32,000 bases of DNA from Candidatus Helarchaeota ASGARD archaeon Hel_GB_B (GTDB lineage Archaea > Asgardarchaeota > Lokiarchaeia > Helarchaeales > HEL-GB-B), in assembly GCA_005191425.1 (NCBI GenBank), contig SUPR01000006.1:30001-62000 (forward strand), written 5' to 3'. The position numbers and the translations under genes were made by a program. A model generated the notes under the pieces. It was not told the origin of the DNA and did no database searches. It saw only the letters and a list, made by a program, of their open reading frames with translations. Of this stretch, positions 5,749 through 25,294 are shown in pieces; position 1 is the first letter of the stretch; the number at the start of each line of letters is the position of its first letter.

Positions 5749-6132
5749 TTAATGGTTCATCATTGCGAGAATAGAACCTATTAAATTTAGAAAATAGCCC
5801 CATAAATAAATATAAAAGTCCCATGAACTATACCATGGAATATACCAAATATTAAAAACAAGAAAAAAAGTAATAGAGCCAATTATTATATTTTCTACAA
5901 AATTTAATAATCCTGCAGGTTTATTTGCTCTATGAATTGCAGCGATGCCTGCAAAAAAGACAAATCCTTTAGCAACAAAAAGCCAGATTAAGCGCCATAA
6001 AATTTCCCAGTTATAAAAGGTGAAATAATTATAAAATTTAGTTATAAAAATTATAGTGATAATTAGACCGCCCAATATAATTAAATAGCCACCTAACTTT
6101 CCTTTCGGTAAATCTGCTTCCATATTAAACAT
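5749..6132 (-). CDS. Hypothetical membrane protein (about four TM)
   Basis: 127 aa, alternating hydrophobic segments, AGGA upstream of ATG. Confidence 0.7.
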   Translation of the reverse strand: MFNMEADLPKGKLGGYLIILGGLIITIIFITKFYNYFTFYNWEILWRLIWLFVAKGFVFFAGIAAIHRANKPAGLLNFVENIIIGSITFFLVFNIWYIPWYSSWDFYIYLWGYFLNLIGSILAMMNH

Positions 6133-6332
6133 CCTAAAGAAATGGTTGTAATTGAAAATATGTAAAAGTTTAAAAATTTGAATCTTTTGATCTTTATTTT
6201 ACAAGTGGAGAATTTGTTTCAGAATGTTAATAGATCAGAAATTTTAGAGTATCAATTGATCTATATTTAATGTGTAAGATATTGACCATCAAAAAATTAT
6301 GAGTTAAATTAAATTCCTTGAAAATATTTATC

Positions 6333-7697
6333 TTAAAATTCTTTACATAATTGGTAATAAAATTCTGCACCTAATTTCAGGTTATTAACGCTTATACGTT
6401 CATTTTTCCCGTGAGCAAGTTTACTCATCTCTTCAAAAGGTATATCTACGATCATTGGATGAAAACCATAAGCGATACATCCTTTCCATCTAAAATATCT
6501 ATTATCAGTTGTGCCAGGTACCATGTAGGGTAGAATTTTAGCTTGTGGATCAATACTTGCCATAATTTTTTCAATTATACTGTAAAATTCATTATTAATT
6601 TCACTTGCGCTCCCTTCATCCCAATGTATCGGAGTAATCTCTATCATTGAATAATACTTCTCCCCTAAAATCTTTTTTAGCTGATTTAACAAATTATCAG
6701 CAGTATCTCCCGGCAATAACCTACAATCTAATTCACAAACAGCTTCATCTGGAACAATATTCGTTTTTTTGCCAGCATGACAAATTGTTGGTGTGATATT
6801 CATCTTAATTAATGGTTCAATAAATGACTTAACGCCAGGATATTTTTTTGATAATAAATTAATAATTATCTTTAAAAACACCCTGTTTTTTAAAAGTCCT
6901 TTTAAAAGAAAATTAACGTCTAAATTATCGACCATAATTTTATAATTTGAAGTAATCTGAATTGGAATATTATATTTATAAATTTTTGTTATGATCTCTG
7001 CCATTTTAGCCAATGCATTATCTCCTGTACCTGGAATTGAGCCATGAGTTGCTACCCCTTTAACTTTAATTTTTGTCCAAAATGGCCCTTTTTCAGCGAC
7101 TTGTAATGTATACTTCTGAAATTGTTTAATTGGTAATTTAAATCCACCACCTTCTCCCAAAACATATTGAGCTTTGATTTTTTCCCAATGATTATCGACC
7201 ATAAATTTTGCGCCATAGACCCCACCTTTTTCTTCGTCCGCTACAGATAAGAATTTTATTGTCCTATTTGGCTTTAGACCTAAGCGTTTCATAGCAATTA
7301 TAGCGAAAATTTGTGCAGTACAAGTCCCTTTCATGTCTAAAGCTCCGCGTCCCCAGATTTCATTATTAATTAACTCTCCCCCAAAAGGGTCATGTTCCCA
7401 ATTTTCTTTATTTGCTGGTACTACATCCAAATGGTTTATTAGCAATAACTTAGGAAGAGAATCATTTTTACCCTCTAATGATGTTAATAAATTACCTCTA
7501 TCTTGATCTGACTCGAAAATTTCGCATTCAAAACCCTCTTTTGTTAATAGTTCATAAAAATAATTAGCCGCTTTTATTTCATTTCCTGGAGGATTTGAAG
7601 TATTAATCCGAATTAATTCTTGAAGGATTTTTATAATTTCTTTTTCATTATCTTTATTATTTTCAAATAGTTCAAGTTTAAAGTCCAATATTATCAC
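6333..7697 (-). CDS. M20/M25/M40 family metallo-hydrolase (ArgE/DapE/ACY1-like)
   Basis: INHLDVVP, WGRGALDMKG, ADEEKGG, VAEKG, PGTTDNRYF, AHGKNERI metal-binding motifs plus a dimerisation domain. Confidence 0.92.
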   Translation of the reverse strand: MIILDFKLELFENNKDNEKEIIKILQELIRINTSNPPGNEIKAANYFYELLTKEGFECEIFESDQDRGNLLTSLEGKNDSLPKLLLINHLDVVPANKENWEHDPFGGELINNEIWGRGALDMKGTCTAQIFAIIAMKRLGLKPNRTIKFLSVADEEKGGVYGAKFMVDNHWEKIKAQYVLGEGGGFKLPIKQFQKYTLQVAEKGPFWTKIKVKGVATHGSIPGTGDNALAKMAEIITKIYKYNIPIQITSNYKIMVDNLDVNFLLKGLLKNRVFLKIIINLLSKKYPGVKSFIEPLIKMNITPTICHAGKKTNIVPDEAVCELDCRLLPGDTADNLLNQLKKILGEKYYSMIEITPIHWDEGSASEINNEFYSIIEKIMASIDPQAKILPYMVPGTTDNRYFRWKGCIAYGFHPMIVDIPFEEMSKLAHGKNERISVNNLKLGAEFYYQLCKEF

Positions 7698-21554: not shown

Positions 21555-22961
21555 TTGAAAATAAAAGAGTATATTGACAAATTATTTCACCCAAAATCAA
21601 TTGCTATAATTGAGGCATCTACTAAAATTCCGTGGTACATTCAAGGCATTATTGAAAGAAATTTTGAGGGTAATCTATATTTGGTTTCTAAAAAAGAAGA
21701 TAATATTTTTGGAATTAAATGCTTTAAAGATATTTCAAAAATACCTGACAAAATAGACCTCGCAATAATAGCTGTTAATCGAAATAAACTGATTGACGTA
21801 ATAAAAAAATGTATAGAAAAACAATTTTTTAATTTACACATATTTTCAGCTGGACTTGGAGAATATGATGAGAAAGGTATTGAAATTGAAAATGAAATTT
21901 ACAATTTATTGAAAAATAGTAATACAAAAGCCATAGGACCGAATTGCATGGGAATTTATTCCACTGAAGGTAGACTCTCTTATAGCCCATATTTTTCAAA
22001 AGAAGAATGCAAAAAAAGATGCGTTTCATTTGTATCTCATTCCGGAGATTTAACTACACGATATGTTATCCGGACTAATGACTATGGGGTAAATTTTCAT
22101 AATGTTGCTAGTATAGGAAATTCTATTAGCTTAAAGTTTTCCGATTTTATTTCTTATTTTAGCGAAATCGATAGGGCAGATATAATTGCCGGTTATTTCG
22201 AGGGTTTTTCTCGGTTCAATGAATTGGAGGGTAAAATATTAATTGATATACTTAAAAAAAATAAAAAACCAATATTATTATTAAAAGGAGGGACCACATC
22301 CGATGGTAAAAGAGCTGTATCATCTCATACTGGGACAATTGCATCGAATTCTAACTTATGGAATTGTATTTTTAAGCAATCAAATGCCATTAAAATAGAA
22401 ACATATGAAGAACTCATCGATTCTACGATTGCTTTTTATTTTTGTAAAGAATATTACCCAACTGTAAAAAGTCTTCTTATAATTACTTGGAGCGGCGGTA
22501 AAGCTGTATTGGGAGTTGATCGGACTATAAATCTGGGAATAAAGGTACCAGAAATCCAAGAACCGACTAAAACAAAAATGAAATCCATGATCTCAATTGG
22601 GAGTATTTCAAACCCTCTTGACCTACCTTGGATTGGAAGATCTGAAAAATTTTCTGAAATATGTAAGTTAGCTATTAGCGAGCCCTATATTGGTGGAGTA
22701 ATTTTCGAAACATATGCACCCCGTCAATTTGATGAGAGATATGAAATCTATTTTCAAAATATTCTAAAAATATTCAATCATTGTAAAAATTATAAAAAAC
22801 CATTTTTAATGTCTTTACCCTTTGCAAATATAAAACAACGAGAAAAATTAAAAGAGAAATTTATTAAATATTCTATACCAATTTTCCCAAGTATAGAACG
22901 AGCCGCAAAAGCATTTTTAAATCTTTATTATTTTAAACATCATCAAAATAATGTAATTTAA
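21555..22961 (+). CDS. Second ACD alpha-subunit-like CoA-binding protein (divergent)
   Basis: PKSIAII, IGPNCMG, SHSG, SIGN, YFEG, AVSSHTG (phospho-His), SNPLDL; TTG start with GGTGA upstream; no ATP-grasp domain. Confidence 0.85.
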   Translation: MKIKEYIDKLFHPKSIAIIEASTKIPWYIQGIIERNFEGNLYLVSKKEDNIFGIKCFKDISKIPDKIDLAIIAVNRNKLIDVIKKCIEKQFFNLHIFSAGLGEYDEKGIEIENEIYNLLKNSNTKAIGPNCMGIYSTEGRLSYSPYFSKEECKKRCVSFVSHSGDLTTRYVIRTNDYGVNFHNVASIGNSISLKFSDFISYFSEIDRADIIAGYFEGFSRFNELEGKILIDILKKNKKPILLLKGGTTSDGKRAVSSHTGTIASNSNLWNCIFKQSNAIKIETYEELIDSTIAFYFCKEYYPTVKSLLIITWSGGKAVLGVDRTINLGIKVPEIQEPTKTKMKSMISIGSISNPLDLPWIGRSEKFSEICKLAISEPYIGGVIFETYAPRQFDERYEIYFQNILKIFNHCKNYKKPFLMSLPFANIKQREKLKEKFIKYSIPIFPSIERAAKAFLNLYYFKHHQNNVI

Positions 22962-23381
22962 AATTTTTACGTCTTGTAATAACAATTTTTAAGATAGATT
23001 ACCCATTTTGAAGCCTAAATTCACTTCAATTACAAATTTATTTTTGTGATATTACTCTAAATATTATAAATTTATTAAATAAAAATCATAAAAAGTAAAA
23101 TATATAGTTATTTAAATAATATATATGATTTTATATGATTTCTTTATTTTAAAATAAATTGAGATAATTAAAAATTAAAATAATGAAAGCAACGGAAATT
23201 AAAAAAACTCAAATATAATTAAATTATAAATTATTTCGTTCTTAGTTTTTCTTAATTCCATTGCAAAATATCTATGTGAATAGTAAATGATTTAAATAGA
23301 ATTTTCTAATTTTTTAAAAAATTTCTATAAAATTTTGTGAATCAGATATTTAGACGCAAATTTAAAATAATAGTGATTTTA

Positions 23382-24728
23382 ATGAACGAAGAAATCAAAC
23401 TTGTAGTGGCACAAGCTAGAAGTCGGGACGATAATCGAAATATAGTTAGAGTTAATGAGGATACTATGAATAGTATAGAGATATATACAGGAGACATAAT
23501 AGAAATTTCAGGAAATAGGACAACATGCTGCGTTGCATGGCCAGCATATCCGGAAGACCAAGAAAAAAAAATTATTAGATTAAATAAATGGACTATGACT
23601 AATGCTAAGGTAGAAGTGGGAAAAAAAGTGTCTATCAGGAAAGCATTTACAAAAAATGCCAATACAGTTGTTCTTGAGCCCATAAATATGAAACTAAAGG
23701 AAGACAATTATCTGGAAAGATTTATCCAAAGTAAATTGATAAATTATCCAATAATTGAAGGAGATATTGTTTTAGTTACTATTGGACTGAATAAAGAAAT
23801 TATTTTTAGAGTAAAAAAGACTTTACCAAAAGGTATTCTTGTAATTTCTACCAATACAAATATAAATATTATAAATAAAAAACAATTATATTTGAATTCG
23901 GATGATGACCTAAATAATTATGAAAATCTCGGAGGATTAAATGATAAAATTCGAGAATTACGAGAAATCATTGAAATACCAATTAATCACCCCGAGATCT
24001 ATGACTATCTAAATATTAGAAAATTCAAAGGAATTTTATTATATGGCCCATCTGGGTGTGGTAAAACATCTTTAATAAAATCAATAGTAGATCAAACGGC
24101 AGTTAATTTTATTTCGCTCAATTTTTTAGATATTTTTGGTAAATATGCCGAGGAATTTGAAAAAAAGTTAATAGATATTTTTAGAGAGGCTGTAAATAAC
24201 CAACCAACTATAATTCATATCCCAAATATTGATTTACTTGCTCCGAATAATCCTAATAATATATTAGTCCCTGAAAAAAGGGTCATTTCCTTAATTCTCG
24301 AATTAATAGATAAAATTGATCCAAAATATACTATATTTTTAATTGGTGAAACTAATGATATTAATGCAGTAAATCCCTCACTATTACAGCCTGGAAAATT
24401 TGATATCTTGATAAATATAGACAGACCAGACGAAAAAAAGAGACTTGAAATTTTAAAAAATTTGACTAAAAATGAATTTTTATATGATAAAATTGACTTT
24501 CATGAATTAGCAAGAATGACGGAAGGTTTTACTGGTGCATCACTTAAACTCATGATTGATAATGCAAAATTAAATGCAATTAAACGTAATTTCTCAAATA
24601 TCTTGGACATTCAAGAAGAAATATCCTTAGACCGACTCAATGGACTTAAAATTATAAGTGATGATTTTAATATATCTCTTAAAAAAATTAAAGAATTGAT
24701 GGCACTCAATAATTCCACTGAAAAATAA
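23382..24728 (+). CDS. Cdc48/VCP-like protein: N domain plus one degenerate AAA domain
   Basis: N domain LVVAQA..RDDNRNIVRV...GDIIEI...WPAYPED; Walker A GPSGCGKT; Walker B reads IIHIPNID; SRH reads NPSLLQPGKFD. ATG at 23382 (AGTGA upstream) preferred over 23337. Confidence 0.88.
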   Translation: MNEEIKLVVAQARSRDDNRNIVRVNEDTMNSIEIYTGDIIEISGNRTTCCVAWPAYPEDQEKKIIRLNKWTMTNAKVEVGKKVSIRKAFTKNANTVVLEPINMKLKEDNYLERFIQSKLINYPIIEGDIVLVTIGLNKEIIFRVKKTLPKGILVISTNTNINIINKKQLYLNSDDDLNNYENLGGLNDKIRELREIIEIPINHPEIYDYLNIRKFKGILLYGPSGCGKTSLIKSIVDQTAVNFISLNFLDIFGKYAEEFEKKLIDIFREAVNNQPTIIHIPNIDLLAPNNPNNILVPEKRVISLILELIDKIDPKYTIFLIGETNDINAVNPSLLQPGKFDILINIDRPDEKKRLEILKNLTKNEFLYDKIDFHELARMTEGFTGASLKLMIDNAKLNAIKRNFSNILDIQEEISLDRLNGLKIISDDFNISLKKIKELMALNNSTEK

Positions 24729-24796
24729 GAATGATAGAAATTTTTTTGAATATGTTAATACTAATTTAATTAAATAAATAAAAAAGTGGCGTTATA

Positions 24797-25294
24797 ATGA
24801 ATAAAAGTTCCCAATATCGATTAAAAATTAAACAACTTCAAGATATCTTTATAACAATCGATGGAATTTGGTTTTTAGAATGTGAAAAAAGATTTGGCTT
24901 TAAAAAAACGTTTGATATTGATTGTGAGGTTTGGAAGATTTTTGGAAAAATTATGATGAAGAGACTTAAAAAACAACAAAATATAGAAAATAATTGCACA
25001 ATAGATGAAGCTATCAGAATTTTAGAAATTTATTATGATTTAGAAGGTACTAATGCAATAATCAGTAAAGTTTCAGAGAAAGAATTCAAAATTATTGTTA
25101 AAAATTGCATCTGGTATAATAATTTAGTAAAATCAAACAGAGATCAAGTAGTAAGATGTGATGAAGTAGATAAACAGATATATCCAACATGGTTTAAGAT
25201 ATTAAATGAAGGTTTTGAACTAGAATTACTCAAGTCTATGCCAAGTGGAGATAATTTTTGTGAATTTAGAGTTAAGTTAGTAAATCCTAAATAG
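24797..25294 (+). CDS. DUF6125-like (V4R/ATC-hydrolase-like fold) protein
   Basis: DGIWFLECEKRFG...DCEVW N-terminus; KNCIWY, RCDEVD and FCEF cysteines. Confidence 0.7.
   Translation: MNKSSQYRLKIKQLQDIFITIDGIWFLECEKRFGFKKTFDIDCEVWKIFGKIMMKRLKKQQNIENNCTIDEAIRILEIYYDLEGTNAIISKVSEKEFKIIVKNCIWYNNLVKSNRDQVVRCDEVDKQIYPTWFKILNEGFELELLKSMPSGDNFCEFRVKLVNPK

Follow-up and report, generated by a model that had tools for sequence, protein, structure and literature searches.

The window analysed here is a 32,000-nucleotide stretch from Candidatus Helarchaeota archaeon Hel_GB_B (contig SUPR01000006.1, positions 30,001 to 62,000 of the forward strand); positions are counted from its first letter. At 23382-24728 it carries a gene for P0001, a protein made up of the N domain and one ATPase ring domain (D1) of a Cdc48 enzyme. 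Rather than a gene in decay, it appears to be a rare derivative of Cdc48 that has been maintained without motor function; this view rests on its open frame, the lack of any remnant of the second ring (D2), a confident structural model, a sister protein with shared changes, a retained P-loop and a shift of constraint towards the N domain. The best explanation is that P0001 would be a functional N-domain platform which binds nucleotide without hydrolysing it and serves as a decoy, adaptor or regulator; we put the probability of this at roughly 55%.

The gene and the domains that it encodes are as follows.

23382..24728, + strand: complete gene for the single-ring Cdc48-like protein P0001, 448 aa, stop codon included (open reading frame, Pfam and NCBIfam)
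23397..23645, + strand: CDC48_N (double-psi barrel), residues 6-88 (Pfam PF02359, E 8.4e-25)
23709..23870, + strand: CDC48_2 (beta-clam) subdomain, residues 110-163 (Pfam PF02933, E 2.2e-10)
24033..24422, + strand: single AAA (D1-type) alpha/beta domain, residues 218-347 (Pfam PF00004, E 4.5e-25)
24492..24602, + strand: AAA lid (alpha-helical subdomain, AAA_lid_3), residues 371-407 (Pfam PF17862, E 3.7e-10)

The AAA domain aligns with the D1 domains of VAT and of p97. The NCBIfam CDC48 model TIGR01243 covers P0001 over profile positions 2-436 of 733 only, and the score is 316.7 bits, below the family cut-off of 802.65. When the window was searched with canonical D2 by tblastn, no D2 remnant was found; the single AAA domain is the only match. 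P0001 consists of N plus D1 and nothing further. It has the features expected of an AAA domain, namely an alpha/beta fold with a P-loop and a helical lid. Of the features of the CDC48 family it has the N-domain pair; two rings, a family-level score, the catalytic motifs and the C-terminal HbYX motif are missing. An AlphaFold2 model of the protein is confident, with a mean predicted local distance difference test score (pLDDT) of 85. The top Foldseek matches of this model are p97 N-D1 structures, which align over the full length (E ~1e-41).

The motifs of P0001 were compared residue by residue with those of Thermoplasma VAT (5g4f) and 242 other N-D1 segments.

24045..24068, + strand: Walker A / P-loop GPSGCGKT, residues 222-229, intact in the alignment; Lys228 and Thr229 are retained
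24138..24161, + strand: pore loop 1 GKYAEEFE, residues 253-260 (canonical SK[FY]YGESE); the aromatic residue is retained, Gly is replaced by Glu
24210..24233, + strand: degenerate Walker B IIHIPNID, residues 277-284 (canonical IIFIDEID); Asp281 is replaced by Pro and Glu282 by Asn
24342..24359, + strand: sensor-1 region IGETND, residues 321-326; Asn325 is retained, Ala323 is replaced by Glu
24372..24404, + strand: second region of homology NPSLLQPGKFD, residues 331-341 (canonical DPALRRPGRFD); Arg335 is replaced by Leu, Arg336 by Gln and Arg339 by Lys

Every canonical row of the comparison set has an hhhhDE Walker B, and the DE pair, R336 and R339 are 100% conserved in it. With the three replacements in the second region of homology, both arginine fingers of P0001 are lost. 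Gly257 of the pore loop is also 100% conserved in the canonical set; it is Glu in P0001, whose pore loop is acidic, and in P0166, a sister protein from a Lokiarchaeota metagenome-assembled genome (MAG). Among the canonical N-D1 columns conserved at 90% or more, P0001 deviates at 49 of 106 (46%); the median for canonical proteins is 2 and the maximum is 19. Since the catalytic residues are lost and the fold and P-loop are kept, P0001 would be classed as a pseudo-ATPase on its residues.

These results confirm in full what a sequence-only reading of this DNA had observed in the sequence. The frame at 23382-24728 is open on the + strand, as it had stated, and Pfam and the alignment agree that the N domain and the Walker A motif are intact. 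The three altered motifs that it had listed (IIHIPNID, KYAEEFE and NPSLLQPGKFD) are each present at their place in the alignment. The lack of a D2 ring is confirmed by the TIGR01243 coverage, the one Pfam AAA domain and the tblastn search. The gene is, as proposed, a half-length N-D1 derivative of Cdc48 that retains the P-loop but lacks the residues for hydrolysis, the arginine fingers and the pore-loop Gly.

It is very unlikely that P0001 is still an active ATPase, whether through non-canonical residues or through a finger or acidic residue borrowed in trans from a partner. Some features are compatible with residual activity: P0001 retains Walker A and the sensor-1 Asn, and the Lys at the position of the second arginine finger keeps a positive charge. 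There are also known cases, such as Torsin with LAP1/LULL1, in which a dead partner supplies the arginine finger of an AAA+ protein. However, both acidic residues of Walker B are gone (Pro-Asn) and the alignment offers no nearby substitute. P0166 has Ser-Asn at this place and has lost the sensor-1 Asn as well. In addition, the pore-loop Gly has become Glu and the D2 motor is absent.

P0001 has no HbYX tail by the criterion of Forouzan et al. (2012, PMC3493965): its C-terminus reads ..NSTEK, in which the penultimate residue is neither Tyr nor Phe. The type A Cdc48 of the same genome terminates in ..PYT. The idea from the sequence-only reading that the protein docks on the 20S proteasome therefore finds no support in this sequence. 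Judging from its residues, P0001 cannot be an unfoldase or a direct proteasome activator of the HbYX type; this is explained by the loss of the Walker B pair, the arginine fingers, the pore-loop Gly, D2 and the docking tail.

The P-loop of P0001 should still bind nucleotide, and ATP would be bound and not hydrolysed. The conformation of the N domain in Cdc48/p97 is governed by the nucleotide state of D1, and ATP brings about the 'up' state (PMC5543420). Because D1 sets the N position, a non-hydrolysing P0001 would be conformationally locked, its N domains held in one state. Such a platform would present Cdc48-type N domains to the substrates or adaptors of the canonical enzyme. It may hold or sequester ligands of type A Cdc48, or hand them over, and in this way could act as a decoy, an adaptor or a brake on Cdc48-dependent proteostasis.

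The sister protein P0166 (432 aa) is encoded by a gene that is complete within its contig, and it has the same architecture as P0001, to which it is 39% identical. Derived states common to both are G257E in the pore loop, F279H, E282N in Walker B and A323E, all at positions which are 95-100% conserved in canonical proteins. In P0166 the acidic pair of Walker B has become Ser-Asn. Its Walker A is GPPGCGKT, with Lys and Thr likewise retained; despite the divergence of the two proteins, G222, G225, G227, K228 and T229 are kept in both.

The pairing of P0001 with P0166 receives 99.9/100 (Shimodaira-Hasegawa-like approximate likelihood ratio test, SH-aLRT/ultrafast bootstrap) in an IQ-TREE analysis under LG+F+G4, and an SH-aLRT of 99 under LG+C20. 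Approximately unbiased (AU) tests reject both alternatives tried: P0001 with the canonical copy of its own genome, apart from P0166 (p 0.0002), and P0166 with the Cdc48 of another family (p 9e-5). The former placement had been favoured in a quick-tree AU test that started from an under-searched free tree; the rejection comes from the full search. The two proteins are separated by a path of about 2.2-3.1 substitutions per site, a value that varies with the model (LG+C20 or LG+F+G4). From the shared derived states and the sister grouping, it follows that the inactivation is older than the split between P0001 and P0166. Both genes have stayed open across this path.

The closest relatives of P0001 are type A Cdc48s; the copy in its own genome is 39% identical. 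Among canonical Cdc48s, identity is 76-91% in the D1 alpha/beta domain and 30-72% in the N domain. In six single-ring proteins (P0001, P0166 and four others described below), D1 falls to 40-60% while the N domain holds at 36-77% in five of the six. The exception is P0274, in which the N domain has diverged too. The N domain of P0001 is 47% identical to that of its own type A Cdc48, which is inside the range of canonical paralogues. Constraint in the single-ring proteins has moved from D1 to N.

The list of cdc48 paralogues, a check that the sequence-only reading had proposed, comprises three full-length two-ring copies in the genome of P0001, on contigs C107, C2 and C162. The D1 motifs are canonical in all three. 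The D2 motifs are canonical in the C107 and C2 copies; the C162 copy matches all but the D2 arginine-finger pattern. A split gene, with an orphan D2 encoded elsewhere, was considered and rejected: the other single-AAA genes of the genome are PAN-like and Vps4/CdvC-like, as judged from coiled-coil and MIT-like N termini. The same genome (G000) has open frames of ~887-889 aa on contigs C69 and C104 (loci L006 and L008-L010), each with three AAA matches and a Cys-rich N-terminal region. Their products look like unusual triple-AAA proteins.

The type A copy on C107 is the candidate partner in another explanation, according to which P0001 is a regulatory or 'poison' subunit that joins the D1 ring of the canonical type A hexamer. 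The gap left in the D2 ring, together with an inactive and finger-less D1 site, would then tune or brake the unfoldase. We consider this rather unlikely. The closeness of P0001 to type A Cdc48s and to the C107 copy (39%) is consistent with it, as are the retained AAA fold and lid in a confident predicted structure. A tandem pair of single-ring genes at another locus (L042, described below) also has the layout typical of hetero-oligomeric AAA pairs. However, the D1 alpha/beta domain of P0001 is only 40% identical to that of the proposed partner, far outside the range given above for canonical paralogues, and many conserved residues of the interface and nucleotide site are altered. Moreover, the genome has neither a second single-ring gene nor an operon link to cdc48.

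A number of observations weigh against P0001 being a maintained and functional platform. Long branches and an atypical amino-acid composition characterise both P0001 and P0166, and may inflate the support for their grouping. Charged conserved residues near the nucleotide site or subunit interface are replaced in P0001 (R264I, R290N, R342I, E343L and D387S); given these substitutions, ring assembly is uncertain. Strain variants of the gene are 99.8% identical in DNA, with one synonymous and two non-synonymous differences, which is too close for measuring selection. The gene neighbourhood provides no functional hint and is not conserved.

Distribution points in the same direction. In 40 related genomes (six others of the order, congener included, and 34 further genomes of the class), the best match of P0001 is always a two-ring Cdc48, with at most 40% identity. 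A profile of the P0001/P0166 clade recovers the gene from none of these six genomes of the order, congener included. The congener carries the upstream neighbour of the gene at 70% identity, and a synteny check found no N-D1 gene or remnant beside it. A search with the pore-loop pattern of the clade over 185,579 species genomes found no relative. Such rarity is in keeping with a gene that is dispensable or transient.

We consider it unlikely, nevertheless, that P0001 is a functionless truncated duplicate, slowly decaying or transient, whose frame is still open by luck. Decay would account for the patchy distribution (one of 41 genomes of the class, and no copy found in the congener, even at the syntenic spot) and for the very long branch with 46% of the highly conserved positions altered. 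It is also consistent with the fact that single-ring derivatives recur, with catalytic decay in each. On the other side, a random codon at 26% GC is a stop with a probability of 0.086, so that a 448-codon open frame would arise by chance with P ~4e-18; the other five frames of this stretch contain 10-65 stops. The sister gene is complete after ~2.2-3.1 substitutions per site and shares inactivating substitutions. The P-loop is intact and the fold is predicted with confidence; in its N domain, P0001 is about as close to canonical type A as other canonical Cdc48 paralogues are. The sequence-only reading had taken a lack of homologues with this architecture to mean a decaying duplicate; homologues do exist, in the form of the 432-aa sister and other single-ring N-D1 genes.

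Other searches for close relatives of P0001 gave few results. Named matches belong to Lokiarchaeota, Helarchaeota, Promethearchaeia and the 'Asgard group'. When full-length P0001 is used as query, two-ring Cdc48s dominate, as their two AAA domains double the score. With a profile of residues 90-448 (P0001 and P0166), two-AAA fragments rank top and no further member of the clade appears above them. Generic patterns run on metagenome contigs found no single-ring N-D1 open reading frame; all 80 of the 80 loci are two-ring or have no N-D1 architecture. Neighbours of P0001 in the ESM Atlas are generic Cdc48 clusters or fragments only. The one match in the scan of species genomes with clade-specific peptide patterns was bacterial and spurious (27% identity). 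The gene that adjoins P0166 is most similar to a gene from a family and order other than those of P0001's genome (52% vs 41-45%). In view of this affinity, the P0001/P0166 pair is either old with many losses or has been transferred.

Single-ring N-D1 genes have arisen more than once. Among the matches listed, four other complete genes of this kind occur besides P0001 and P0166.

P0211: 523 aa, L052:3812-5383, JGI metagenome contig Ga0373628_0039677; Walker B is DH, with only the Walker B Glu lost (replaced by His)
P0191: 550 aa; Walker B is DK, with only the Walker B Glu lost
P0274 and P0205: 466 and 460 aa, L042:4574-5974 and 6001-7383, Asgard MAG GCA_029856205.1; in tandem, 26 nt apart

All members of the single-ring set have CDC48_N, CDC48_2, one AAA domain and the lid, and all are Asgard-type sequences. 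In P0274 and P0205 the sole catalytic defect is the loss of the first arginine finger (ALLSPGRFD), and Walker B is intact. The layout of these two genes suggests a hetero-oligomeric single-ring pair. The tandem lies directly downstream of a gene for an Arf/Ras-like small GTPase. A catalytic defect is present in six of six single-ring N-D1 proteins vs 3 of 237 two-ring segments, one of these three being poorly aligned. The short relatives P0166, P0205, P0191 and P0211 come from an exhaustive representative search (best 150 matches), and weaker single-ring members may exist.

In the IQ-TREE trees (LG+C20 and LG+F+G4), P0211 and P0191 group with the type A Cdc48s of two different families and the tandem pair falls inside a third; only P0166 is a true sister of P0001. 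Single-ring N-D1 proteins have at least two origins within Asgard type A Cdc48, and probably four. A single clade of four single-ring proteins, as obtained with FastTree, is 26 log-likelihood units worse under IQ-TREE, though it is not formally rejected (p-AU 0.08). The path is a repeatable one: loss of D2, then decay of catalysis in D1, with the N domain kept.

Some related architectures were found alongside this set. P0211 has a C-terminal PCI domain (PF01399, E 2e-7, 31.5 bits vs a cut-off of 22); no description of such an AAA-plus-PCI fusion was found in the literature searched. P0236 (632 aa), from the representative search, shows a further natural single-ring architecture: two tandem Cdc48 N domains followed by one D1, with Walker A, Walker B and the arginine fingers intact. 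P0227 and P0239 (770 aa), from the same search, are two-ring Cdc48-like proteins with a degenerate D1 (Walker B DDLN or DNLD, and aberrant pore loops); they are rare cases of dead D1 rings in full-length prokaryote-type sequences.

A broader reading of the recurrence is that Asgard archaea repeatedly turn a duplicate of Cdc48 into a stand-alone, ATP-locked N-D1 ring without motor function, dedicated to regulating or scaffolding Cdc48 and ubiquitin-like proteostasis. This is speculative and unlikely. Variants within it include, for example, an N-domain decoy, a hetero-oligomeric brake and an organiser of lid-like assemblies, the last for the PCI-fused P0211. If true, these proteins would add a new functional class, that of archaeal pseudo-AAA regulators, with parallels to eukaryotic dead AAA rings and PCI scaffolds.

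The P0001 locus itself is part of contig C150; the Asgard MAG to which this contig belongs has 3.54 Mb and a completeness of 93.7%. The frame is uninterrupted over 448 codons from an ATG, and the exact 448-aa product is annotated in four assemblies. A GTG start at 23337, upstream of the ATG, would make the product 463 aa. A Shine-Dalgarno-like GTGA sits 5 nt 5' of the start codon. One further feature follows the gene.

24741..24747, + strand: run of seven T, beginning 13 nt past the P0001 stop (direct reading of the sequence)

This T7 run is possibly an archaeal oligo-T terminator, in which case the gene would be monocistronic. The upstream neighbour (window 21555-22961, + strand) encodes a 468-aa CoA_binding_2/Succ_CoA_lig protein. 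With its paralogues in three related genomes (G001, G003 and G005), it belongs to a very large family, with 15-23 matches per genome in these three. The downstream neighbour (window 24797-25294, + strand) encodes a 165-aa DUF6125 protein; 68 nt and the T7 run lie between it and P0001. The sole match of the DUF6125 protein in the congener is 28% identical and is located at another place in that genome.

If P0001 and its counterparts are functional, they would be natural 'trap'-like variants of Cdc48, informative on the ligands of the N domain and on nucleotide control by D1. The use of dead AAA modules as regulators would then not be confined to eukaryotes. Should these proteins be no more than short-lived products of duplication, they nevertheless record a repeatable path of D2 loss, D1 decay and N retention. 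The sequence-only reading had also proposed a possible archaeal precedent for the degenerate AAA modules of eukaryotes. This holds as an analogy only: in the trees, the single-ring proteins are rare, lineage-specific and fast-evolving offshoots of one Asgard Cdc48 type and lie at a distance from the eukaryotic families.

Compared with archaeal Cdc48/VAT, P0001 is alike in its N domain, its N-D1 linker and its D1-type AAA domain with lid. VAT is its best sequence match in the PDB (E 2e-118), and in the trees P0001 branches among Asgard type A Cdc48s. A C-terminal HbYX is found in many archaeal Cdc48s, though not in all. P0001 differs from Cdc48/VAT in having one ring, a dead Walker B, dead fingers and an altered pore-loop Gly, no HbYX-type C-terminus and a score below the family cut-off. 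In the published classification, prokaryotic Cdc48 is a single two-ring type (Kienle et al. 2016, PMC5070193). Asgard archaea also carry natural single-ring N-D1 derivatives, in which the ATPase site is dismantled and the N domain and P-loop are kept. No description of a single-ring dead archaeal Cdc48 was found in the literature searched, the coverage of which is incomplete.

Engineered N-D1 fragments of p97/VCP (PDB 1e32, 3hu2 and 5ifs) are like P0001 in extent, at ~440-480 residues. They are laboratory truncations with intact catalytic motifs, whereas P0001 is a natural gene with dead ones. AMA, from Archaeoglobus and methanogens, also combines an archaeal N domain with one AAA ring. It is an active proteasomal ATPase in which HbYX is always present (Forouzan et al. 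2012, PMC3493965). Unlike AMA, P0001 is derived from Cdc48 D1, aligns over its full length to Cdc48 N-D1, is catalytically dead and has no HbYX.

The D2 ring of NSF and the D1 rings of Pex1/Pex6 are nucleotide-binding, non-motor rings of the Cdc48 family which serve assembly or scaffolding. To our knowledge, each of them occurs only in one polypeptide with an active ring. Kienle et al. (2016, PMC5070193) note long branches for these domains, a trait that P0001 shares. Unlike them, the dead ring of P0001 stands alone, and it is a lineage-specific archaeal derivative, not their ancestor. As a nucleotide-binding platform, P0001 would work most like these non-hydrolysing rings, NSF D2 and Pex1/Pex6 D1.

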